A stretch of DNA of 32,000 bases from Polynucleobacter sp. JS-Mosq-20-D10. Lineage in GTDB: Bacteria; Pseudomonadota; Gammaproteobacteria; Burkholderiales; Burkholderiaceae. This document shows, piece after piece, positions 6,038 through 31,767 of this stretch. Position numbers and translations under genes: made by a program. Position 1 is the stretch's first letter, and each line of letters starts with the position of its first letter. The stretch lies in NCBI RefSeq assembly GCF_018687755.1, contig NZ_CP061305.1, positions 2,019,788 to 2,051,787 on the forward strand, in the 5' to 3' direction. A model generated the notes under the pieces. It saw only the letters and a list, made by a program, of their open reading frames with translations, made no database searches and was not told the origin of the DNA.

Positions 6038-6054
6038 TATCGTTTAAAACGACA
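6038..6054. repeat. 17-bp palindrome family, one outer mismatch
   Basis: tatcgtttaaaacgaca. Confidence 0.75.
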
Positions 6055-10083: not shown

Positions 10084-10133
10084 CTCTTGGTGGCCCGAGG
10101 CGGAATCGAACCAGGGCCAAGGATGCTCAATCC
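10084..10133 (-). repeat. TLE copy, subfamily B
   Basis: ctcttggtggcccgaggcggaatcgaaccagggccaaggatgctcaatcc. Lies 3' of the BLUF gene. Confidence 0.85.
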
Positions 10134-11879: not shown

Positions 11880-11938
11880 TTTCTTGGTGGCCCGGGGCGG
11901 AATCGAACCACCGACACAAGGATTTTCAAATATCCTCC
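11880..11938 (-). repeat. TLE copy, subfamily A, the most tRNA-like
   Basis: The minus strand reads AGGAT-ATTTGAAA-ATCCT TGTGTC GGTGG TTCGATT CCGCC CCGGGCC A CCA. No 5' acceptor strand or D arm is present. Confidence 0.85.
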
Positions 11939-13342: not shown

Positions 13343-13961
13343 CGTTTTCTCCTTTAAGTTAAATGGGCACACTTAATTTATTGTCATAAGTTTTGGTTGG
13401 ACAACCACTTTTTGCCAAAAGCCACAGAGATCTAATAAATTTCAACCAGATCTATTCTTCTTTTATTAGGTTTTGCTAAATAACTTTATAAATTACTACT
13501 GAAACAAGAGCAGTGACACTCAGTTGTTATGTCACCCTAAAGCTGGACTTAGAGTCGCAGTCATGGAAATTCTGGGCAGTAGCAGAGACTTAGTATCACT
13601 ATCCTTTACAGGACGCCATTAGAGTTGCTTACTAATTGATATAAGAATATTTCAGCACAAAGATTAAAAGATCACGAGCAAGCCCTGCTTACACAGCAAC
13701 TTGCAAACACGACATAGGTAGCCACTTAATGCTTATGTCATTGTTGCGTTTTACGGCCGCACATAAAAGGAGATAGCGAAACCGCCCTTACCCAATCGGG
13801 TTGTGCCCTAAGTGGTGTAGTAAAGAACTCGGCGAAAGTCCTTTCCTATAACTGAGCCTGTTGCTTAAGGCTCAGTGTAGGTTGAATCTAGCGAAAATCA
13901 ATCAAAGAAAAAAGGAATGTGTGAGCGAGAGCGAAACACAGGCGAATGTAGTTCGCCTTAC

Positions 13962-14745: not shown

Positions 14746-15312
14746 ATGTCACAAGCAAGAGTTTTAAATCCACAAGAACTACGCCGAGTTTTAGACCATG
14801 TTGCTACACGTAGGCACAGCGCTCGTAATCGCGCTATGTTGCTACTTACGCACTACGCGGGTATGCGAGTAGGTGAAGTTGCCGCCCTACGCATAAACGA
14901 CGTTTTAAATAGCGACAACACGATTAAGGATGAAGTGCGCTTAATGCCCGAGCAAACCAAAGGAAAGCATGCTCGTACTGTTTACCTAAATGAACGTATG
15001 CGTAAGGAGATTAGCCAGTACTTGCGTGTACTTCGTATTAAAGATGCCAGCAAGCCTTTGTTCTACACACAAAAACAAGCTGGTTTCTCTGCTAACTCAT
15101 TAGCCCAGTACTTCTTTTATCTCTATCGAGCCTGCTTACTAGATGGTGCAAGCAGCCATAGTGGCAGACGTAGCTTTCTAACTGGGCTTGCTAATAAGGG
15201 TACGGCGATCCATATTTTGAAGAGCCTAGCAGGACATAGAAACATTAGCACTACCGCAAGCTATCTCTATAGCAGTCCAACACAACTTAAGGCCGCAGTT
15301 GAACTTGTGTAA
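14746..15312 (+). CDS. Short tyrosine recombinase (catalytic domain only, 188 aa)
   Basis: GGGAG RBS. AGMRVGEV (Arg I), HSGRRSF (HxxR), GHRNISTTASYLY (His...Tyr nucleophile). Confidence 0.8.
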   Translation: MSQARVLNPQELRRVLDHVATRRHSARNRAMLLLTHYAGMRVGEVAALRINDVLNSDNTIKDEVRLMPEQTKGKHARTVYLNERMRKEISQYLRVLRIKDASKPLFYTQKQAGFSANSLAQYFFYLYRACLLDGASSHSGRRSFLTGLANKGTAIHILKSLAGHRNISTTASYLYSSPTQLKAAVELV

Positions 15313-16578: not shown

Positions 16579-17370
16579 ATGAATACACTTATGAACGCAG
16601 CAGAAGTAACAGTAACTAGCAATGTCGTTTTAAACGACAAACCAGCACAAACTGCTGGAAATTCCAATGTAGTAGTTAATGCGACTAAATTGCTTGCCGG
16701 CATGGAAGCAAAGCGCATTTCATGGGAACAAGGTGCATATAGAACTAGTAATTTAGAGCTCTATAACGTTTTAGCTGAATGCCTACTATTTGCAGGCGAA
16801 CTATCTGTTAGCGAGTCTAAACAGCGTAGTGCCGCATTAGAAGCATTCTTCAAGGAGCGTGGGTATAAGTACAAGAAGGACTCACACATCATTGCTCGTG
16901 TAGTTCGCGCTGTATTTGGCAATATTGACCGTCGCCGTATCAGCACGTACGTCTTGGTACTACGCCAAGCTCAAAAGTCCAAAGTTGAAGCAACGCAATT
17001 AGCACAGTGGATTGAAGATAACCATGGCATTCAAGAAATCAAGCTTGCGCGTAGTGCCACTTTTATCAGCCCTACAGTAAAAGCATCTATCGCTAAAGCA
17101 GACTTTGAAAACCTGCCAGTACTAGCAATTGCTAAGTCTGAGCAACTTAGTCAGCTTGCTGATGCTGGATTCGTTGGTGAGGATTGTGTGCTTATTGCAC
17201 AGCAACTGGCTGATGGTAGCTTTGCCATTCGTGCATTGGTACGCAAAGAAGGTGCAGTCAATGCGGCTTTCACAGCATTGTATGGCGATATCAAATCGCA
17301 AGAGGTTGCCGCCAAGAAAGAAGTGGATGCGGCTAATGATGCTGATGGCGCTATTGCTAAACAAGCGTAA
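16579..17370 (+). CDS. Hypothetical protein, first gene of the plus-strand module
   Basis: 263 aa with no recognisable motif. Contains one copy of the 17-bp palindrome in frame (NVVLNDK). Confidence 0.6.
   Translation: MNTLMNAAEVTVTSNVVLNDKPAQTAGNSNVVVNATKLLAGMEAKRISWEQGAYRTSNLELYNVLAECLLFAGELSVSESKQRSAALEAFFKERGYKYKKDSHIIARVVRAVFGNIDRRRISTYVLVLRQAQKSKVEATQLAQWIEDNHGIQEIKLARSATFISPTVKASIAKADFENLPVLAIAKSEQLSQLADAGFVGEDCVLIAQQLADGSFAIRALVRKEGAVNAAFTALYGDIKSQEVAAKKEVDAANDADGAIAKQA
16623..16639. repeat. 17-bp palindrome, perfect, inside a CDS
   Basis: tgtcgttttaaacgaca within ORF 16579-17370. Confidence 0.9.
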
Positions 17371-17378
17371 TTAAAAAC

Positions 17379-17403
17379 ATGGGGGTGTTATGAGCACCCC
17401 CAT
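17379..17403 (+). other. Intra-operon 9-bp hairpin between the 263-aa gene and the AAA+ gene
   Basis: atgggggtg-ttatgag-cacccccat, with no U-run. Confidence 0.5.
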
Positions 17404-17430
17404 ATAAACAAATAACCGAAAGGAATCAAA

Positions 17431-18099
17431 ATGTTTATTAGAAAGGATTTTAAATATGAGCCCAACCAAATTGGTGACATCATCTGGGGCAATGCTGAGA
17501 GTCGTTTGCGAATCGAAGATATTGTCAGTGGTGCCGAAGCATTACCTTACTGCGGCAAATCAGCCATTCTTCTTTACGGAGTCTTTGGTACCGGCAAAAC
17601 CACACTCGCAAAGATGCTACCTAACGCAATTGAAAAAGGTAGAAGTGGCGAAAGCTTAGGCTTTGAAGCTGAATTTATTGGATGCCAGCAAGGATTCAAT
17701 GGCCCACAGGTAATGACGCTTATTGAAAGAATACTAAGTAAAACATCGTTCAATGCCAGCGGACTTCATTACTTCATACTAGACGAGGTGGATAACTTAT
17801 CTAGTCTGGCTCAGCAAAGTTTGAAATCAGCACTCAATACTGACAGGGGCATATTCATTCTCACAACAAACAATATCTCCGAGCTCGATAAGGGCTTGAA
17901 GGACAGGTGCGTGTTAGTTGAAATGAATGCCGCGCCAGTTAGCTCTTATCTACCACTGGCTAAGAGTTTAATAAGTGATATGGGTATTGTTATGAGTGAC
18001 ATTGACTTATTGCCTACTATTTCTGCGGCCAATGGATCTTTACGAAATCTCATACGTAACGTGGAAAGACTTGCTCGACGTAATAAGGGGGTCTTATGA
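17431..18099 (+). CDS. Compact AAA+ ATPase, clamp-loader/RFC-like core
   Basis: Walker A GVFGTGKT, Walker B FILDEVD, sensor-1 ILTTNN, SRC-like KDRCVLV. AAGGA RBS. Confidence 0.8.
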   Translation: MFIRKDFKYEPNQIGDIIWGNAESRLRIEDIVSGAEALPYCGKSAILLYGVFGTGKTTLAKMLPNAIEKGRSGESLGFEAEFIGCQQGFNGPQVMTLIERILSKTSFNASGLHYFILDEVDNLSSLAQQSLKSALNTDRGIFILTTNNISELDKGLKDRCVLVEMNAAPVSSYLPLAKSLISDMGIVMSDIDLLPTISAANGSLRNLIRNVERLARRNKGVL

Positions 18100-18305: not shown

Positions 18306-18331
18306 AGCCCGCTTATTAGCGGGCTATTTTA
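18306..18331 (+). terminator. Rho-independent terminator of the plus-strand AAA+ module
   Basis: agcccgct-tatt-agcgggct, followed by attttattt. Confidence 0.75.
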
Positions 18332-18333
18332 TT

Positions 18334-18350
18334 TGTCGTTTTAAACGACA
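18334..18350. repeat. 17-bp palindrome, perfect
   Basis: tgtcgttttaaacgaca, between the convergent operon ends and followed by a T-run. Confidence 0.9.
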
Positions 18351-18362
18351 TTTTTTCTATTC

Positions 18363-19358
18363 CTACAAATTGAGAGATTCCAAGTAGACTTCATCTCCCC
18401 GCCTCTTAATTAAAGTATTTGATAAAAGTCCGACCGTATTTGCATCCTTAAATACGTTTAAAAAGATCTCATCTGCTGAGTTATTAGAATTTGTAAACTT
18501 AGCCATCGCAAGCGATAAAAGTCCTCTTGCAGATATAAATTGGATGTTGTGCTTCAAAATACTTTTATAGAAATTCTGGGATAAATTCCCCACCTTGCTA
18601 GAACACAACTCATGATCTTGCGGAAGCAGATCCTTCTCATCATCACCAATTAGGAGCAATTTAATTGAGGAAACTTTGTATTTGCTTTCGAGCTTTAGCC
18701 CAGATAGCTCCTCGTCATATGCCAATATTTGTGACTCATATCTTCCTTCGGCCATAAGCTTTTTTAGCCCAATTTTTGCTTCCATGACAATTAAAGTGTC
18801 TTTCGCTAGCACACATATATCTAGACGCCCGTTACGATCTCTACCTCCAATCGTGAGGGGAATTTCTAAACCAATCTTTTCATTAATGCCAAATAGGTAT
18901 CTAGCAGTATTACCGCCCCATATCGATATATTTGTTGTTTCATGTATACCAGTATATTTTTCGAAACTTTTGTATTTGACGTTAAGGCTATCCAAAGAAT
19001 TTTCGGAGAAGCTAATAAGATGGGCTTTAATTTCTGCTAATTCGACCTTGGTATGCCCACTAAAGCTCGAGCAAGATGGAACTGCCTTAAGGCCATCTGA
19101 GAAGTTAATTTTTCCACCGGGACAGCTAAACGCACATGAGCCACATGAGAGGCACTGATCTTGATCAATACTAATTGCGTTTAATGCTCTATCGTAAGAA
19201 ATGCAGTTGATCTCGGTTGTTAATAACTCATCTTTGCTATTAACCACACCTTCGTCACCAAGAAAAATGGGCAGGTTTTTATAGATCTTATGCGTAAAGA
19301 CCAAGCATGGCGGGAGGCCATCGCCGCCAACGGGAGTCAGTTTATAACTACATGTCAC
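18363..19358 (-). CDS. Fe-S-motif protein with PD-(D/E)xK-like nuclease core (candidate restriction/effector nuclease)
   Basis: CLSCGSCAFSCP (CxxCxxCxxxCP) at about aa 69-80. GRLDICVLAKDTLIVMEAKIG gives D-x13-E-x-K. The GTG start overlaps the upstream stop (GTGA). Confidence 0.65.
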   Translation of the reverse strand: MTCSYKLTPVGGDGLPPCLVFTHKIYKNLPIFLGDEGVVNSKDELLTTEINCISYDRALNAISIDQDQCLSCGSCAFSCPGGKINFSDGLKAVPSCSSFSGHTKVELAEIKAHLISFSENSLDSLNVKYKSFEKYTGIHETTNISIWGGNTARYLFGINEKIGLEIPLTIGGRDRNGRLDICVLAKDTLIVMEAKIGLKKLMAEGRYESQILAYDEELSGLKLESKYKVSSIKLLLIGDDEKDLLPQDHELCSSKVGNLSQNFYKSILKHNIQFISARGLLSLAMAKFTNSNNSADEIFLNVFKDANTVGLLSNTLIKRRGDEVYLESLNL

Positions 19359-20527
19359 TTTAGCCTAGCATTTATATCTGCAAGTAGTGCGGCGGGAGCG
19401 CCTAAACTCAATTCATTCAAGTCTATTTCGTTCATTGGTCGTAATACTTGCCCCGATCTTTCTACAATAATTCCCGCAGAATTAGCAATTTGGATTTCAA
19501 TCAGCACTACCTTCTTTAGCTCTGCTAAATTCAAAACATATAAGTCGGGATTGCCTTTTAAAAAATCTACTAGCGCATCTATCGATACTGTTTGGCTTTT
19601 TTTGAAAGCATTGTTTAGTAAATATAAAATTGCAAAACGCCTGTTTTGTATCACGGCTGTAGATTGCATTGTTGCCTCTCTCACCTCAGCCTGATTATTT
19701 TCGCGTAATGCCTTAGAGTTTTTTGTCAAATTGTTATAGTCGAGCGTTCTCTTAACGCAAAAATTATTCTGTGTAATTTTTGGAATATCTAGAACCTTAA
19801 ACATTCTTTTTCCCCTCTTTTTAGCAAGAATGTATGGTGCAGAATCTATATGTGCATTTTTTGCGCTATATGCCGGAAAATCCACTGGCTTGAAAAAGCC
19901 GGCGGAAATTCCCCATGCAATTAAGCAGGACCTCGTTCTAGTATTGCTATCTTGCTCGGATCCGCTTGAAATGGTGATTCGACTTCCGTTATAAGTTACT
20001 TTTTCTTCTGTAATTGGGTAGCCTACAACTAGCTCAGATGTGTCAAATTCATCTGTATTTTTTTGTAATATCTGCCCTAATAAACCAACCATTGGTCCAT
20101 AACTTAATACTGCCTTCACAATAATTGGGTGCATGTCCGCGGAATTGAAATCTGTCTCTGCAAACTTCTTTCCTAGTGGGGTTAGGGTCACAGCGCCCTT
20201 ATTGTCTCTAGTGACCAACCCTAAGCCATGGAGGCTATTTCCAGTATTGCTTACTTCTTTTGACTTTGTAGCGTCAATATCAATGCTATTAGTTAGAGCA
20301 CAGCCAGACTTATCAAGCGCCGCCTTATAGCGACAGTGCTGTATCCCCAAATTTGCTTTTTTTGTTAAGTAGTCACAGAAGGAGTGAATATTTACTGCGT
20401 TTACATTGAATTTAATCTCATTAAACCTAAATGAACTAGTCGTATTAAATTTATTGTTTATTAGCTTGCACATACTGTGCAAACACTGAAATCTAGCCGC
20501 TGGATTTCGATTGATTAAAAATGCCAC
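19355..20527 (-). CDS. Unknown 390-aa protein of the methyltransferase operon
   Basis: The long ORF overlaps both neighbours. The start is uncertain (GTG 20527 or ATG 20473). LHGLGLVTRDNKGAVTLTPLGKKF looks like a winged-helix element. Confidence 0.6.
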   Translation of the reverse strand: MAFLINRNPAARFQCLHSMCKLINNKFNTTSSFRFNEIKFNVNAVNIHSFCDYLTKKANLGIQHCRYKAALDKSGCALTNSIDIDATKSKEVSNTGNSLHGLGLVTRDNKGAVTLTPLGKKFAETDFNSADMHPIIVKAVLSYGPMVGLLGQILQKNTDEFDTSELVVGYPITEEKVTYNGSRITISSGSEQDSNTRTRSCLIAWGISAGFFKPVDFPAYSAKNAHIDSAPYILAKKRGKRMFKVLDIPKITQNNFCVKRTLDYNNLTKNSKALRENNQAEVREATMQSTAVIQNRRFAILYLLNNAFKKSQTVSIDALVDFLKGNPDLYVLNLAELKKVVLIEIQIANSAGIIVERSGQVLRPMNEIDLNELSLGAPAALLADINARLK

Positions 20528-20993
20528 TAAATTTGCCTGACTTGAGATTTTTTATATCCTCAAATCTTATATCAGGAAGCTGATCCCTAGCAAATTTATC
20601 AGTTATGGCCTTTTGAGTGATATCAGGGTAAATAACCAATCCTTTATAGAGCTTCTTATTTACATTGCCCTCAGCACTTGAAATGATTGTTTGAAGCTCG
20701 AGAGCGGCCTCATCTACTCGTTTTGAGCTAGTGAATTTACAAAGAACAACAAATTCATCAATCTTAAAGACCATTTCTATACGCTTTGGCCTGCTGCCAT
20801 AAGGAAACTTCACGGACAAAAAGACTTTCGTTTTAATTACCCCCTCAACATCGAAAGCATGATTTATTAACTGTTGATCTTTATCTAGGTCTGCATAATC
20901 AATTAAGCATTCGCGTACAACCCCGTCTGGCTCCCCAATAACTATTGATGCCAATGTGGAGTTGAAGTTAAATTTATTTGATATCAATTTCAT
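20493..20993 (-). CDS. Unknown 166-aa protein of the methyltransferase operon
   Basis: The ATG at 20993 overlaps the upstream MTase gene by 20 nt. No recognisable motif. Confidence 0.55.
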   Translation of the reverse strand: MKLISNKFNFNSTLASIVIGEPDGVVRECLIDYADLDKDQQLINHAFDVEGVIKTKVFLSVKFPYGSRPKRIEMVFKIDEFVVLCKFTSSKRVDEAALELQTIISSAEGNVNKKLYKGLVIYPDITQKAITDKFARDQLPDIRFEDIKNLKSGKFSGIFNQSKSSG

Positions 20994-21822
20994 ATTGCTG
21001 ACCTACTGCGTTCAGCTTTCTTTTAATAAGCGGCGCATAGTCAGCATTTAACTCGTAACCGATCGCCTTACGACCTAGGGCTAGGGCCATTTTCGCCGTA
21101 GTACCAGTGCCCATAAATGGATCAAGGACCGTATCCCCCCAAAAACTATATAACTTAATCAAGCGTTTTGGTAACTCATCTGGGAAAGGGGCTGGATGCT
21201 CCTCAGACTTTGCCTTAGCTGGCTGCATTTCCCAGATAGAATTGATTGCCCAGTCTTGCCACTCTTTTGTAGTCAGCTTTGATTTTTCCTTAATCTCTTT
21301 TGGGACTGGCTCTCTTTTCCCTTTTTTAGAAAAAACTGTAATCCACTCATAAGGGTACGTAGTAAAGATATTTGGTGGATATGGATAACTGCCAAATGAA
21401 CTAAATCTTACGATTTTTCTCTTATCCCATATGAACAAGCCAAACTGATACATCTCGTTTGTTTCAAACATAAACCTGCTGATGTCATCCAATACCAATC
21501 TTGTCTCTCGACGATCAAATCTTGCGGCCTTACCCGTCAACAAGAATGGCATGATGTTTATGCAGAGCTTTCCATCTGGAGCCAATACTCTTATGCACTC
21601 TTTCCAAACCTTATTTAATTCTTCAATATAGGCTTCGTATGAAGTGCTACCAGTTCCAATTTGGGCATCATTGTCATAGTCTTTCAGTGTCCAATATGGC
21701 GGGCTAGTTATTACAAGATTGACTGAGCCGTCTTTAATATCAGACATATCTTGTGACGACTTAATATAAATTTGTGCGTCACCAATCTGAAAGCTAGTAT
21801 CTTTTGTTTTTACTTTTGCCAT
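20974..21822 (-). CDS. DNA methyltransferase, N4/N6 family, beta-type motif order (IV then I)
   Basis: VITSPPYW near the N-terminus. HPAPFPDELPKRLIKLYSFWGDTVLDPFMGTGTTA near the C-terminus. Confidence 0.9.
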   Translation of the reverse strand: MAKVKTKDTSFQIGDAQIYIKSSQDMSDIKDGSVNLVITSPPYWTLKDYDNDAQIGTGSTSYEAYIEELNKVWKECIRVLAPDGKLCINIMPFLLTGKAARFDRRETRLVLDDISRFMFETNEMYQFGLFIWDKRKIVRFSSFGSYPYPPNIFTTYPYEWITVFSKKGKREPVPKEIKEKSKLTTKEWQDWAINSIWEMQPAKAKSEEHPAPFPDELPKRLIKLYSFWGDTVLDPFMGTGTTAKMALALGRKAIGYELNADYAPLIKRKLNAVGQQYEIDIK

Positions 21823-22844
21823 ACGATGATCTGCTCTTTTCTGGCTGTTTTATTAATTTCATCAAATACTTGAGATGTTGAATTTGTATAGGTTCTTTCT
21901 ACAACCTCAAGCAACTTAAAGGGAGTTAGCTTATTAAAAAATTCCCCTCCATTTATAACTTTTCCGTGAATTTTTTTATCCCCCACCACAAAAATTATTT
22001 TTGCGCCTGGCTTGCACACCAGATACAAATCGTCTAATACTTCTTTCATGCTTTTTTCATAAGTATTAAATTTTTGTATCAAAGAGTCCCGAATGGAATC
22101 TCGTTTTACATCAAAAATATCGTAAATAATTTTTGCATAGTAAGCCGTGTAATCTAGGCAATCAAAATATGGTGGGCTGGTAAAAATATAGTCTACCGAA
22201 TTCTTTGGCAATATCTTTGAAACTTGTCTAGCATCTGAATAGTAGATCTTTGAATTATTCTTCTCTAGAGGATAAAAATGCTTCTTCAGCTTGTTAAGAA
22301 AGCATTCATAAAAATCAATAAATTTCTTAGGTTCAATATTTTTTCCAACAGAGCTTGATGTCCACATGTAGTGATTGCAACCCCTAGCCGTCAAGCAAAC
22401 AGCCCCCATAAAGCAAGACTTTAAATACGCGGGCATATCACCATAAAAGCTTGCTATGGCTGCGATTTGGTCCCCACTCTTTTCATGAAAATAAAATTGG
22501 GCTTGAGTGGAGAGCTTTTTCTTACCCTCAATTTTCTTTGCTTTATCAATAAATGTATTTGCAACTGAGAGCATCTCTTCTTTTTGGTGGGGAATATTAA
22601 GCTTACCCTCTGCAATTGTTACAGCAACTGGATTCATATCGAACCCAACAACATCCATTCCAAGTTTTGCGCCTTCGTAGAGTATGGTGCCAGATCCACA
22701 GAAAGGGTCCAATAAGATTGAATTCTTATCAAATTGCCCCACAATCTTTTGAGCATCTATAGAGGAAATTTTTCCTCTATACGGATACATCCCATGGACT
22801 GACTTAGGGTTATTAACTGAAGTTAAGGTCTCAAATTTGAACAT
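21810..22844 (-). CDS. DNA methyltransferase, N4/N6 family, permuted order (I then IV)
   Basis: HGMYPYRGKI...LLDPFCGSGTILYEGAKLG at aa 17-62. FTSPPYFD at about aa 220. Overlaps the next MTase gene by 13 nt. Confidence 0.85.
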   Translation of the reverse strand: MFKFETLTSVNNPKSVHGMYPYRGKISSIDAQKIVGQFDKNSILLDPFCGSGTILYEGAKLGMDVVGFDMNPVAVTIAEGKLNIPHQKEEMLSVANTFIDKAKKIEGKKKLSTQAQFYFHEKSGDQIAAIASFYGDMPAYLKSCFMGAVCLTARGCNHYMWTSSSVGKNIEPKKFIDFYECFLNKLKKHFYPLEKNNSKIYYSDARQVSKILPKNSVDYIFTSPPYFDCLDYTAYYAKIIYDIFDVKRDSIRDSLIQKFNTYEKSMKEVLDDLYLVCKPGAKIIFVVGDKKIHGKVINGGEFFNKLTPFKLLEVVERTYTNSTSQVFDEINKTARKEQIIVWQK

Positions 22845-22870: not shown

Positions 22871-22876
22871 ATTATA
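22871..22876 (-). promoter_or_regulatory. Candidate -10 box (TATAAT on the minus strand) for the MTase operon
   Basis: Perfect TATAAT 27 nt upstream of the ATG at 22844. The -35 region is poor and is overlapped by the palindrome at 22892-22908. Confidence 0.3.
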
Positions 22877-22891
22877 TGGCCTCGATCTTCA

Positions 22892-22908
22892 TGTCGTTTA
22901 AAACGACA
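22892..22908. repeat. 17-bp palindrome, perfect (19 bp with flanks)
   Basis: a tgtcgtttaaaacgaca t. Lies 10 nt 3' of the integrase stop and upstream of the MTase operon. Confidence 0.9.
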
Positions 22909-22917
22909 TTGTGAGTT

Positions 22918-24192
22918 TTAGGCCAATTGCTCAGCCGCCATAGTAGGAGTTAGCTTTGAATAGTGCCGCTCAATCATGGCCGCACTATTGCCCATTTGTT
23001 TTGCCAGCGTATGAATATCAGTCTTATTTTCTAATAACTCTAAAGTAGCATAGGTATGACGTAGTGAATACAAGGTACGCATCTGCCCATCTTGACTCAT
23101 CGCTAGTCCACTATCTCTCATGAGCTTCTTGAATGTGCCATCTATGCGTAAAGGTTGATGCCCATCTGCCATCACAAATATCCTCTGTGGCGTACGTGTT
23201 TCAAACAGCCTATCGAATGGAATGTCATATACCGCCTTTTGGCGACTATGTAATCTCTTGAGGACATCAACAGCCCTATGCTTGGCTATGAGCCAACGCC
23301 CTCCAGTTTTGCCATCTACCCATATGCGCAAATACTTCTTGCCATCATTGGTATGCCATTCAATATTGTTCCAGCAGATATTGAGCGCTTCAGTGCCATG
23401 CCGCATACCGGTTAGTAACAGCATCTCTACGTAATCACGCACTAATGGGCGAATCTCACGCTCTATCTCAAGGCGACCTTCTTTAGCCCATCTCTCCATA
23501 TAGTCAAATAACTTAGTAATCTCTTCGCGACTAAAGGCAGGGCGGGTTTTGCCTTTATGCCCTCGAGTAGTTAATTTAGGTATTGCCACACGCTCACTAA
23601 TCCAACCTTTATTAACTGCCGTCTGCTGTAGCTTTGCCCATGCACTGGCAAAGTTCATTAAAGTACTGGATTTGGGTACTAGCCGCATCTGCCTATTACG
23701 CCAAATCTCAAACTCGTGAACATCTGTATAAGTAATTTCCTCAAGTCGCTTATCCATGAAATAAGGCAAGAAGTATTTCTCAATACAGGTGATGTAGCTT
23801 AGATAAACACTCTTGCCTATACCCTCACCCAAATCACGCCGCATTTCATAAAGCGTGGTGTGCGCTATTTCTGCAAACGTGGGTGACTTTTGTGCAAGCC
23901 CCAGTCTTTGGCGAAATCTGGCCTCATCATATAAATCACAGGCAACTCGGACAGCATGCTCAATTGAAGCTTGCTTGGTTGAGACTCTATCCCATGTGTT
24001 GTCATGTCGTTTAAAACGACATTGCCAGAGAGGGCTACTAGGCCTACGAAAGAGAACTACGTCGCCGTCACGTAAATAAAGCTCTGTAGGCTCTACGTAT
24101 TTGAGATGGCTTAGGGCTGTGAGCTGGGATTCTTGGAGTGGTGAGGAGATTACTTCTAGGTGACTTTCGGTTACTTTGATTACCTTAGTCAC
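22918..24192 (-). CDS. int: Tyrosine integrase (phage-integrase family)
   Basis: 424 aa. LLTGMRHGTE (Arg I), YSLRHTYAT (HxxR), IERHYSKL (His, Tyr). GTG start in the track. Confidence 0.9.
   Translation of the reverse strand: MTKVIKVTESHLEVISSPLQESQLTALSHLKYVEPTELYLRDGDVVLFRRPSSPLWQCRFKRHDNTWDRVSTKQASIEHAVRVACDLYDEARFRQRLGLAQKSPTFAEIAHTTLYEMRRDLGEGIGKSVYLSYITCIEKYFLPYFMDKRLEEITYTDVHEFEIWRNRQMRLVPKSSTLMNFASAWAKLQQTAVNKGWISERVAIPKLTTRGHKGKTRPAFSREEITKLFDYMERWAKEGRLEIEREIRPLVRDYVEMLLLTGMRHGTEALNICWNNIEWHTNDGKKYLRIWVDGKTGGRWLIAKHRAVDVLKRLHSRQKAVYDIPFDRLFETRTPQRIFVMADGHQPLRIDGTFKKLMRDSGLAMSQDGQMRTLYSLRHTYATLELLENKTDIHTLAKQMGNSAAMIERHYSKLTPTMAAEQLA
24005..24021. repeat. 17-bp palindrome, perfect (19 bp with flanks), inside the integrase CDS
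   Basis: a tgtcgtttaaaacgaca t, encoding CRFKRHD on the minus strand. Confidence 0.9.
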
Positions 24193-24368: not shown

Positions 24369-24671
24369 ATGAAATCCATTGTTCTTTCGCTGTTGATAGT
24401 CATTTCACACCCCATTTGGGCTCAGGTGACCAATTTTGACAATAGCCCATACAACATGCAAAACAGTCCATACAACATGGATAACTCGCCTTACAACATG
24501 CGTAATAGCCCTTACAACATGGATAACAGCCCTTACAACGCCAGCTCAACTAATGGCGTTTATGACAATACAGGCAATCGGATTGGGTATGAAGTTAAGG
24601 CGCCAAGTGGCGTAACAAACTACTTTGATAACAGTGGTAACCGAATTGGCTATACCCCATCAAAAAAGTAA
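24369..24671 (+). CDS. Secreted repeat protein (5 x NSPYNM heptads, 2 x GNRIGY)
   Basis: Signal peptide MKSIVLSLLIVISHPIWAQ. 21-bp tandem repeats at 24441-24545. Confidence 0.65.
   Translation: MKSIVLSLLIVISHPIWAQVTNFDNSPYNMQNSPYNMDNSPYNMRNSPYNMDNSPYNASSTNGVYDNTGNRIGYEVKAPSGVTNYFDNSGNRIGYTPSKK
24441..24545 (+). repeat. 5 x 21-bp in-frame tandem repeat
   Basis: aayagyccwtacaacatgnnn units encoding NSPYNM(Q/D/R). Confidence 0.85.
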
Positions 24672-27447: not shown

Positions 27448-27603
27448 ACGTCTGGTAACTAGATGCTTTATTCAAAGGTTGATTATTTTTACTTTATGAT
27501 TTAACCTATTAATACATCAAGAGATGGCTTAGTCGCCACAGCAACCTGCTAACGCAGTAAGGTGCTAAAAAGATGAGGCTCCCAGTGAGCAATCAAAGCG
27601 ACT

Positions 27604-27628
27604 AACCCACCCATTGGTGGGTTTTTTT
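27604..27628 (+). terminator. Rho-independent terminator about 155 nt after the WYL gene
   Basis: aacccacc-catt-ggtgggtt, followed by ttttt. Confidence 0.7.
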
Positions 27629-27690: not shown

Positions 27691-28050
27691 ATGACTATCT
27701 ATGAATTTAGAGAATGGCGCTTTAGACTAGGACTAACTACAGAGGCTTCCGCTGAGCTCTTAGGGGTTTCAAAAGATGCCGTATTGGGCTGGGAGCTTGG
27801 TAAGCATCCAATTACAAAGCAGACCCGCCTAGCAACATTAGCTTGTGAACTTGCCTATATTGCCGCAGACCAATATGTAAAGGCTCACCCTTATCCATCA
27901 GTCAACAACGGGATTAAAAACTTTGTAGCACATTCTGGAAGGAAAAAAATTAGAGAGGGCATCATCAATGGAAGGAATCCCATTGAAAGAGAGTTATCAA
28001 TACTTCTCGCGCCTAAGTCCCTCATCCACTGTGAGGGCAAGAGATCATGA
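27691..28050 (+). CDS. XRE-type HTH protein
   Basis: Strong RBS AAGGAGGA. FRLGLTTEASAELLGVSKDAVLGWELGK. Confidence 0.65.
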   Translation: MTIYEFREWRFRLGLTTEASAELLGVSKDAVLGWELGKHPITKQTRLATLACELAYIAADQYVKAHPYPSVNNGIKNFVAHSGRKKIREGIINGRNPIERELSILLAPKSLIHCEGKRS

Positions 28051-28724
28051 AAACAAATGAATTTGCGTTTTACCGAAAACGAATCCGTCAAACCCAAGAG
28101 AAGATCGCTGAAGTTCTCAATATCCCTCTAGATATCTATATCGAAATTGAGGATAACAAACGAGAGCCTTCTCAGCAGGTTAGAGAGGCTTTTGGTTCTC
28201 TATTAGCCAGGTTTCCAGGAAGTACAGACCTATCAAGGCCTAAGATTAAGGCGATTGATGAATATAAAGTTCAATACCAATTTAAAACTGGGAAACTGCC
28301 CGTTGGTAAGCATTGGATTCCATTCAATATTTTAGGATGTAAAAAGGTATTGATTGATTTCAGTCCATACGATGATGATCTAGATAAAGGAGTAATTAAG
28401 ACAGAAAAGGAGATGTGGAATTGGATAAATGCTCATGACATATCACCCGTAATTACTCCCGAGTATTTCAATCACCTTACCACTCTAAATAATCGTGAAC
28501 TTCAGGAAGAGGTTGATTTTTGGGATAGATTCTATACAGCTCAGCATTATGGGAAATATAAGTCTAGAACAACGCCAAAAGAACTTGAGGAGCAAATCTC
28601 GAAAAAGAAAGAGCGTACTAGAGCATATTGGATAGATAAGGCTAATCGGGTTTTAATAAAAACTCTACTTGGACTTATTGCTTTATGGGGGTTGGCTCAC
28701 CTAATAGTTTTTTTAGATAAATGA
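28047..28724 (+). CDS. XRE-type HTH protein with C-terminal transmembrane anchor
   Basis: ATGA overlap with the upstream gene. N-terminal IRQTQEKIAEVLNIPLDIYIEIE and C-terminal VLIKTLLGLIALWGLAHLIVFL. Confidence 0.6.
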   Translation: MKTNEFAFYRKRIRQTQEKIAEVLNIPLDIYIEIEDNKREPSQQVREAFGSLLARFPGSTDLSRPKIKAIDEYKVQYQFKTGKLPVGKHWIPFNILGCKKVLIDFSPYDDDLDKGVIKTEKEMWNWINAHDISPVITPEYFNHLTTLNNRELQEEVDFWDRFYTAQHYGKYKSRTTPKELEEQISKKKERTRAYWIDKANRVLIKTLLGLIALWGLAHLIVFLDK

Positions 28725-28955: not shown

Positions 28956-29006
28956 AATCTTGGTGGCCCGGGGCGGAATCGAACCAGGGCCGAGGATGCC
29001 TGATCC
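28956..29006 (-). repeat. TLE copy, subfamily B
   Basis: aatcttggtggcccggggcggaatcgaaccagggccgaggatgcctgatcc. 29 bp (28958-28986) are identical to 11882-11910. Confidence 0.9.
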
Positions 29007-31158: not shown

Positions 31159-31209
31159 TTTCTTGGTGGCCCGGGGCGGAGTCGAACCAGGGCCGAGGAT
31201 GCCTGATTC
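31159..31209 (-). repeat. TLE copy, subfamily B
   Basis: tttcttggtggcccggggcggagtcgaaccagggccgaggatgcctgattc. Confidence 0.9.
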
Positions 31210-31716: not shown

Positions 31717-31767
31717 GAGTTTGGTGGCCCGGGGCGGAATCGACCAGGGCATCAGGATATCTGACTC
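31717..31767 (-). repeat. TLE copy, subfamily B
   Basis: gagtttggtggcccggggcggaatcgaccagggcatcaggatatctgactc. Confidence 0.85.

Follow-up and report, generated by a model that had tools for sequence, protein, structure and literature searches.

FokI is the archetypal Type IIS restriction enzyme; its separable cleavage domain underlies zinc-finger nucleases (ZFNs) and transcription activator-like effector nucleases (TALENs), and its methyltransferase (MTase) counterpart, M.FokI, is a single fused protein. Type IIS enzymes are modular, with a part for recognition and a part for cleavage, and two MTase activities are used for their asymmetric sites (PMC4081073, PMC12707154); fused and separate MTase arrangements both occur in general (PMC4081073). 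In BspD6I, the large subunit that recognizes the site also carries a catalytic domain and forms a heterodimer with a small subunit of 186 amino acids (aa) (PMC4081073). The FokI-type module of three winged helix-turn-helix (wHTH) domains is also known as a separate subunit, namely, DndG/DptG, SspB, and BrxA (PMC10853773, PMC12839542). Here, we analyzed a five-gene cassette, M1-M2-P3-P4-P5, in a 32,000-nucleotide (nt) stretch of the Polynucleobacter sp. JS-Mosq-20-D10 genome (hereafter, the window). A first-pass annotation, made from the letters of the sequence, had taken these genes for a multisubunit restriction or defense module, and their co-occurrence, the FokI-like fold of P4, and the nuclease core of P5 all support that view. 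The cassette is probably a Type IIS-like restriction-modification (R-M) system whose endonuclease is divided over separate polypeptides, with a cysteine-rich domain on P5 that is most likely of the iron-sulfur (Fe-S) type. Its five intact open reading frames (ORFs) lie on the minus strand at 18363-22844 and are listed here together with two regions of P5.

21810-22844, minus strand: M1, DNA methyltransferase, 344 aa
20974-21822, minus strand: M2, DNA methyltransferase, 282 aa
20493-20993, minus strand: P3, orphan small protein, 166 aa
19355-20527, minus strand: P4, predicted FokI-like DNA-recognition subunit (multi-winged-helix), 390 aa, GTG start
18363-19358, minus strand: P5, predicted catalytic subunit (cysteine-rich N terminus plus PD-(D/E)xK C terminus), 331 aa, GTG start
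19059-19358, minus strand: P5 aa 1-100, cysteine-rich region with the conserved cysteines
18714-18953, minus strand: P5 aa 136-215, PD-(D/E)xK catalytic core, E140...D180-x12-E193-A-K195

Five genes conserved in content and order

Twenty-nine loci were compared, drawn from the genomic contexts of homologs in metagenomes and from a survey in which each species was represented by one genome, and every ORF in them was screened with hidden Markov models (HMMs) of the five proteins. Co-occurrence in the same order across genomes was a check that the first-pass annotation had named, and it holds: the order M1-M2-P3-P4-P5 is the same in 28 of the 29 loci, with all genes on one strand wherever the locus is long enough. 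The genes are thus inherited as a unit, as those of Type II systems are, and the arrangement is not due to chance. The exception, L027, is a decayed copy with a deletion from the C terminus of M2 to the N terminus of P4; L028 is also decayed, with a frameshift in M2. The cassette was found in Bacteroidota and Pseudomonadota, as well as in metagenome-assembled genomes (MAGs) of the candidate phyla radiation (CPR) and DPANN. The hosts include Flavobacterium, Bacteroidales, Odoribacter, Prevotella, Muribaculum, one Pseudomonadota single-cell genome, and MAGs labeled Nealsonbacteria and Aenigmatarchaeota. Clustered at 90% identity, P4 is represented by at least 220 clusters, which come from gut and rumen Bacteroidales, Flavobacterium, freshwater Polynucleobacter, and CPR/DPANN MAGs. 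Only 18 clusters of the P5 family were found at this identity in a word-indexed search, yet P5 is present in every cassette locus. Compared with the window across phyla, M2 is the most conserved gene (70 to 77% identity), followed by M1 (53 to 63%), P4 (42 to 57%), and P5 (31 to 40%), and P3 evolves fastest (21 to 33%).

The surroundings of the cassette are mobile elements (integrases and PriCT/DUF3987 primases) and defense islands (pAgo/Piwi, GmrSD, and Mrr). An integrase gene lies directly upstream of it in the window, at 22918-24192, and integrases are also found near it in L005 to L008 and L010. In the Bacteroidales loci L005 to L007, an ORF of 61 to 63 aa and a gene for a long prokaryotic Argonaute (pAgo, Piwi) stand directly 3' of the cassette (at about 10.2 to 14.2 kb in L005); beyond pAgo there is a GmrSD-type gene in L005 and, further on, an Mrr/NA-iREase gene in L006 and L007. 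With these neighbors, the cassette of the three loci therefore lies in a defense island on an integrative element. In the Flavobacterium loci and some Bacteroidales loci, M1 has an HTH_3 gene ahead of it, where an R-M system would encode its controller. We considered whether a controller (C) protein belongs to every cassette as a sixth gene and discarded the idea, there being no HTH_3 gene in the window or in most Prevotella-type loci.

The cassette consists of two modules, M1-M2-P3 and P4-P5. In one metagenomic contig (JGI 3300059473, with P0015), it is split into P4-P5 and a convergent M1-M2-P3. When the window is compared with its close relative L012 over 18309-22810, the two are 97 to 100% identical over M1, M2, P3, and the first ~120 nt of P4, 79 to 92% identical over the remaining P4 and P5, and 99% identical again at the 3' end of P5 and just beyond (18309-18458). 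This pattern is a recombination mosaic with a breakpoint at the P3/P4 border. Upstream of the split cassette we noticed a GmrSD_N gene, an HNH_2 gene, and a gene for a 620-aa protein with faint matches to Fer4, DUF3470, and HEAT, a further protein with a cysteine cluster in a defense context.

All four gene junctions overlap, as had been read from the sequence: M1 and M2 by 13 nt (21810-21822), M2 and P3 by 20 nt (20974-20993), and P3 and P4 by 35 nt (20493-20527), with P4 and P5 joined by GTGA at 19355-19358. The operon was also said to lack an internal terminator, and we found no strong one, only three weak 5-bp stems on the minus strand; terminator-like sites in the whole region number 9, versus 5.0 ± 2.4 in shuffles. 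The higher AT content of the operon relative to the integrase gene, called visible in the first-pass annotation, is real but modest (GC of 0.381 in the operon, 0.449 in the integrase gene, and 0.404 in the window). The GTG start of P4 is backed by its homologs: among 57 family members, residues M1, A2, L4, N6, R7, and C15 are invariant or nearly so, as are the first 17 residues as a whole (MAFLINRNPAAR..CLH). For P5, the conserved cysteines C3 and C18 speak for the long GTG start; the NCBI/GenBank model (QWE00434.1, 313 aa) begins 18 codons late and drops both cysteines. GenBank names M1 a "DNA adenine methylase" (QWE00438.1), M2 a "site-specific DNA-methyltransferase," and P3, P4, and P5 "hypothetical protein."

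P3, P4, and P5 reached no family's cutoff in Pfam, NCBIfam, PADLOC, or PHROGs, and those of the window and of three divergent loci had no match in PADLOC-DB v2 at an E value of ≤0.1. The "unrecognized composition" of the operon thus holds for family libraries, in which there are subthreshold matches only, to ferredoxin-type models for P5 and to PF09821, a winged-helix-type domain and the only such Pfam match, for P4. Because Pfam, NCBIfam, and PADLOC fail to see three of the five genes, censuses of defense systems miss the cassette. The first-pass annotation could place none of the three proteins; P4 and P5 now have a place at the level of fold, and P3 is still an orphan. Nor do all three belong to characterized families in this same arrangement, an outcome that had been allowed for, because the endonuclease is split, a ferredoxin-type motif sits on it, and P3 has no relatives of known family.

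Methyltransferases and predicted endonuclease subunits

M1 and M2 have their motifs in the orders noted earlier. In M1, the S-adenosylmethionine (SAM)-binding motif DPFCGSGT (aa ~46 to 53) is followed, after about 165 aa, by the catalytic TSPPYF, which is an α-like order with a predicted central target-recognition region. In M2, TSPPYW comes first and DPFMGTGT second, the β order. M1 matches Pfam PF01555 (9e-14) and PF02086 (D12 class, 6e-8) over aa 33 to 262 and PADLOC MTase_II (3e-21). M2 matches PF01555 over its full length (8.7e-47) and MTase_II (2e-68), and its best relative in the PDB is 2zie, a putative modification methylase of 297 aa (6.6e-41, full-length alignment). Both proteins have the SAM-binding motif and the catalytic (S/D/N)PP(Y/F/W) motif of a Type II R-M MTase, and each looks like a self-sufficient methylase. 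The TSPPY[FW] motifs are compatible with N4-cytosine or N6-adenine as the methylated base and do not decide between them. The recognition sequence would be asymmetric, with M1 methylating one strand and M2 the other. The suggestion that the two MTases go with an asymmetric target had been made before, and it is strengthened by P4, a predicted FokI-like recognition module. Unlike the fused M.FokI, the MTases of the cassette are two separate proteins.

We assign the cassette to Type II because scans of the five proteins with Pfam, PADLOC, and NCBIfam found no nucleoside triphosphatase (NTPase), helicase, or P-loop. A separate endonuclease with a catalytic motif and with no NTPase or translocase, as is typical of this type, is present in the form of P5.

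The AlphaFold2 (AF2) model of P4 is confident, with a predicted local distance difference test score (pLDDT) of 90.6 and a predicted template modeling score (pTM) of 0.91. In a Foldseek search of this model against the PDB, the top three matches are all FokI (2fok_B, 2fok_A, and 1fok_A), with E values of 2e-7 to 7e-7, a probability of 1.0, and template modeling (TM) scores on the query (TMq) of 0.46 to 0.54 over 338 to 442 columns; the next match is the FokI-like nickase BspD6I (E value of 0.09). P4 thus has the N-terminal multi-winged-helix recognition fold of the FokI family (PDB 1fok, 2fok). Its size is about that of the part of FokI ahead of the cleavage domain, which starts at residue 381 of 1fok_A, and the C-terminal end of the 390-aa protein shows a winged-helix-like pattern of helices and strands. 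A single-sequence search of the PDB with P4 returned nothing, and with a profile of 57 family members the only sensible match among PDB sequences was FokI, at a nonsignificant E value of 0.03; the two proteins match at closely corresponding positions, residues 101 to 163 of the P4 profile aligning with 112 to 180 of FokI. We detected no nuclease domain or motif in P4 with Pfam, in the AF2 model, or with Foldseek, and the family has no fused nuclease, because all 120 homologs listed are 331 to 402 aa long. No named relative of P4 turned up in annotated plasmid and phage collections. Conserved in the family are the cysteines C15, C51, C65, C76, and C201 and, to a high degree, the motifs TKSKEVSNT, SSGSExDSNTRT.SC, and NRRFAILY, which may be the recognition elements of three subdomains. 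Judged by its modeled fold, P4 appears to be a stand-alone FokI-like recognition subunit, which would read the site and have no nuclease of its own.

FokI likewise uses a nonspecific PD-(D/E)xK nuclease for cleavage and two methylase activities for its asymmetric site, but its recognition and cleavage parts are on one polypeptide, whereas here they are predicted on two, P4 and P5, with the nuclease encoded by the next gene. The ferredoxin-type cysteine motif at the N terminus of P5 and the extra gene P3 are further differences from the FokI system. R.BspD6I/BstNBI (2ewf, 2p14) is a multisubunit Type IIS endonuclease, as the cassette enzyme would be; it provides the nearest fold for the nuclease domain of P5, and its nickase is also a weak structural match for P4. 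However, P4 shows no catalytic domain, unlike the BspD6I large subunit, BspD6I has no Fe-S motif, and its small subunit has no similarity to P3. Taken strictly, the FokI family does not include the cassette, whose cleavage domain is neither fused nor homologous in sequence; nor is the cassette of the BspD6I type, as its recognizing subunit shows no catalytic domain. DndG, SspB, and BrxA belong to phosphorothioate or BREX systems with ATPases, whereas the partners of P4 are two MTases and a PD-(D/E)xK protein, and none of the three is found in the 50 best-ranked PDB matches of P4, in which FokI stands alone. A natural split of FokI-type recognition and cleavage bears on the evolution of Type IIS enzymes by domain shuffling and also on their engineering.

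The absence of a catalytic domain is something that P4 shares with S subunits. P4 could then be a specificity subunit shared by the methylases and the nuclease, as HsdS is in Type I systems or the B subunit in BcgI, with P3 as an adaptor; a separate S module is used by Type IIG and IIB systems (PMC4081073), and the overlaps of P3 on both sides link the M genes to P4. We consider this very unlikely. The motifs of M1 are separated by about 165 aa, M2 can be aligned from end to end with the stand-alone 2zie, and M1-M2-P3 and P4-P5 recombine independently, which fits poorly with methylases that depend on P4.

The first-pass annotation had guessed that P5 is a nuclease, and invariant catalytic residues and structural neighbors now support this guess. 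P5 carries CLSCGSCAFSCP, as had been stated, but the spacing given for the nuclease motif, D-x13-EAK, was off by one residue: it is D180-x12-E193-A-K195. E140, D180, E193, and K195 are conserved in all 20 of the diverse homologs compared. In the AF2 model, the C-terminal domain has mean pLDDT values of 67 to 94 in blocks of 10 residues, and aa 66 to 101 are poorly modeled (pLDDT below 50). Foldseek matches in the PDB are Nt.BspD6I (E value of 1.3e-3, probability of 1.0), the BspD6I small subunit 2p14 (TMt of 0.48, E value of 0.018), Cdn1/Can2, and the R2 restriction-like endonuclease; among the viral models of BFVD, they include annotated PD-(D/E)xK nucleases and restriction enzymes, the best-scoring matches being uncharacterized. 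For the sequence comparison with the cleavage domain of FokI, the query was residues 381 to 576, which we checked to be identical to 1fok_A 381-576; no sequence similarity to P5 was seen, only a general likeness of the PD-(D/E)xK fold. It is safe to state that P5 is a PD-(D/E)xK nuclease whose nearest solved relatives are the catalytic modules of Type IIS enzymes.

The N-terminal region of P5 contains the motif C69-x2-C72-x2-C75-x3-C79, which is conserved in 20 of the 20 homologs, with P80 following in most but not all of them. CxxCxxCxxxCP is the canonical signature of [4Fe-4S] ferredoxins. C18 and C52 are also conserved in all 20, which brings the number of fully conserved cysteines to six, and C3 and C96 are conserved in 18. 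All conserved cysteines are N-terminal of residue 97; C252 is kept in only 10 of the 20. A single-sequence search of the PDB with P5 found only ferredoxin motifs, the family profile matches polyferredoxin repeats in the PDB at 2e-10, and some members of the family carry precomputed matches to PF00037 or PF12797. The cysteine-rich region is therefore a probable binding site, as far as its sequence tells, for one or two [4Fe-4S] clusters; eight cysteines could serve two clusters, and six could serve one and leave ligands to spare. AddB, Cas4, Dna2, and Exo5 also combine a PD-(D/E)xK nuclease with a [4Fe-4S] cluster, held by an "iron staple" of four cysteines that flank the nuclease domain. In P5, by contrast, CxxCxxCxxxC is contiguous and lies in a separate N-terminal region, and none of these four proteins is among the structural matches listed for P5. 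Neither two large reviews (PMC4081073, PMC12707154) nor full-text literature searches yielded a report of a Type II restriction enzyme with an Fe-S cluster, and the literature searched offered no relevant report of a split FokI. If the Fe-S cluster is confirmed, restriction enzymes will join the DNA-processing enzymes that have one.

Taken as a split Type IIS-like system, the cassette would work as follows. P5 would be the cutting subunit, a PD-(D/E)xK nuclease brought to the DNA by P4, and would cut at a fixed offset from the site in the manner of FokI, two copies presumably being needed for a double-strand break. Its cysteine-rich N terminus, most likely with one or two [4Fe-4S] clusters, would dock on P4, serving as a docking or structural module in place of the covalent linker of FokI. 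P3, as our best guess, would be a subunit that assists or regulates either modification or the assembly of the complex. The overall logic is that of classical R-M; the surprises are an architecture that is split, a ferredoxin motif, and a fifth gene that this scheme does not explain.

Several points weigh against this reading. It is a prediction from sequence and modeled folds, and a characterized isoschizomer may already exist in REBASE. The structural matches of P5 are marginal (E values of about 1e-3, TM scores of 0.2 to 0.5, and a pLDDT of 67.5 for the whole model), and P5 had to be rejected as a sequence-level homolog of the FokI cleavage domain, for which hhalign gave a probability of 0.4%. 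The model leaves the strongly conserved P3 with no necessary function. As to the cofactor, two homologs from CPR/DPANN MAGs lack C3 and C96, and the Fer4-type scores of P5 are below the Pfam gathering cutoffs (22.3 versus 24.5 bits for PF12797 and 20.7 versus 21.1 bits for PF00037). The cysteines could bind zinc instead, and those of P5 (and P4) might be zinc ligands or form a structural knot in an otherwise ordinary split Type IIS enzyme with no Fe-S cluster. This is possible, as a minority view: the AF2 model shows no confident ferredoxin fold in the low-scoring segment, cysteine-rich zinc modules are common in nucleases (PMC3592412), and the host is an aerobe, but CxxCxxCxxxC(P) is the ferredoxin signature and, apart from the proline, is kept in every homolog, and neither the polyferredoxin match of the profile nor the Fer4-type matches of some members fit well with zinc.

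P3 and the competing readings

Whether searched as single sequences (13 of them against Pfam) or as a profile of 13 sequences, P3 has no match in Pfam, PADLOC, NCBIfam, PHROGs, or the PDB, and the profile resembles neither P4 nor P5 nor the FokI cleavage domain. We searched 1.84 billion representative sequences exhaustively with an HMM of P3 and found 78 cluster representatives. P3 as a domain of larger proteins could be dismissed, all of these being stand-alone proteins of 85 to 172 aa, except for one weak match of 268 aa. G24, R68, V75, and K86 are invariant, R71 is nearly so, and position 73 is always acidic (E or D); the hydrophobic stretches could fit an α-β-β-β-α-β core. The gene is present in 27 of 28 informative loci. 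It overlaps both M2, to which it is translationally coupled, and the start of P4. It belongs genetically to the methylase module, because it stays with M1-M2 both in the split locus and in the L012 mosaic. P3 is thus a conserved component for which current R-M models do not call.

The main rival, by our ranking, gives P3 a share in cleavage, the readings with a shared S subunit, with zinc, or with a function other than restriction being lesser ones. The enzyme would be a three-subunit endonuclease similar to BspD6I/BtsI (Type IIT), in which P4 only recognizes the site and P5 and a divergent P3 cut one strand each, so that P5 would not need to dimerize. The BspD6I small subunit (186 aa, PMC4081073) is similar in size to P3, whose gene is immediately upstream of P4, overlaps it, and was seen in 27 of 28 loci. 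The invariant R68 and K86, the nearly invariant R71, and the conserved acid at 73 lie in apparently consecutive β-strands, and some PD-(D/E)xK enzymes borrow catalytic residues from elsewhere in the protein (PMC4081073). However, P3 lacks a (D/E)xK triad: two positions ahead of K86, every sequence has a hydrophobic residue. As a hidden nuclease it also failed in profile comparisons with P5 and its nuclease domain, P4, the FokI cleavage domain, and the whole PDB, all of which were negative. It further segregates with the MTases and not with P4-P5 in the split locus and the mosaic, and the low identity of this fastest-evolving gene (21 to 33%) speaks against a catalytic role as well. A three-subunit enzyme is thus quite doubtful, and a split enzyme with P5 as the only nuclease remains our preferred reading.

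A bolder version of the split enzyme would make P5 the first restriction endonuclease (REase) subunit with one or more ferredoxin-type [4Fe-4S] clusters that have more than a structural role: they would let the redox or iron state gate cleavage or assembly with P4, or would help to sense DNA. P3 would then be a novel type of R-M accessory factor that couples methylation to the nuclease, for example, by delaying restriction in a new host or by sensing antirestriction proteins. We hold this combination to be unlikely.

The lack of a precedent for the putative Fe-S domain of P5 in the Type II REase literature that we searched could also be turned against restriction itself, which is predicted from sequence. 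P3 to P5 might instead have another methylase-linked activity, such as that of a modification-dependent nuclease or of a repair or regulatory complex. Of all the readings, this is the least probable. An R-M system would need what is seen here, namely, strict linkage to two MTases, a FokI-like module, an intact nuclease triad, a position in defense islands on mobile elements, and controller-like HTH genes.

Flanks of the cassette and other features of the window

The cassette is flanked by the following features.

22871-22908, minus strand: upstream control region (putative), palindrome TGTCGTTTAAAACGACA at 22892-22908 (17 bp) plus TATAAT at 22871-22876
18306-18350, no strand assigned: downstream hairpins, palindrome at 18334-18350 plus GC-rich hairpin at 18306-18325
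22918-24192, minus strand: tyrosine recombinase (integrase), 424 aa, PF00589 at 27.1 bits, exactly at the cutoff; not part of the cassette

The TATAAT hexamer is 27 nt ahead of the start codon of M1 and may belong to a promoter; a scan for consensus promoters did not call it, the -35 hexamer being poor. On the other side, the same palindrome is found 13 nt past the stop codon of P5 and is kept at the same place in L012. The hairpins at 18306-18350 likely mark the end of the cassette transcript.

The 17-nt perfect palindrome (TGTCGTTTWAAACGACA) is present in nine copies in the window, six of them exact, and none is expected from shuffles. The copies start at 6038, 12098, 15696, 16623, 18334, 22892, 24005, 28741, and 30960. 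Most are intergenic or just 3' of stop codons, and two bracket the R-M cassette; one lies within the integrase ORF and one within an ORF at 16579-17370. It could be an element like repetitive extragenic palindromes (REPs) or a terminator, an uptake-type sequence, or an operator.

A second, short tyrosine-recombinase gene (14746-15312, plus strand, 188 aa, PF00589 at 7e-25) lies in the same putative island. Repeats resembling the 3' end of a tRNA (GGTTCGATTCCGCCCCGGGCCACCA) occur at 10088-10112, 11885-11909, 28961-28985, 31164-31188, and 31722-31746 (minus strand), with weaker copies near 1640, 2866, 5980, and 10674, and several copies are followed by a hairpin. Between the copies at 11.9 kb and 29.0 kb, which are separated by 17,076 nt, lie both recombinase genes, the R-M cassette, and a WYL regulator. 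These repeats may be att-like borders of the island or a dispersed repeat derived from tRNA. Integration next to a tRNA was rejected, since the window holds these 3'-end-like repeats only and no intact tRNA was found in it with ARAGORN.

Convergent with the cassette, at 16579-18099 on the plus strand, are an uncharacterized ORF of 263 aa and a gene for a 222-aa AAA+ protein that resembles clamp-loader/RFC subunits (PHROG 168, 7e-18); the two look like replication genes of a mobile element. On the far side of the integrase gene, the 100-aa ORF at 24369-24671 (plus strand) has a signal peptide-like start and tandem 21-nt repeats that encode NSPYNM(D/Q/R) heptads (repeat family D6), and it had no family match. 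A SAM-I/IV riboswitch at 27509-27606 (plus strand; Rfam RF01725, 64.3 bits) precedes an HTH_31-like ORF (27691-28050) and an uncharacterized ORF of 225 aa (28047-28724), an unusual downstream gene set for a SAM riboswitch. A Polynucleobacter-1 small RNA at 13508-13643 (plus strand; Rfam RF01718, 93.6 bits) agrees with the source organism.

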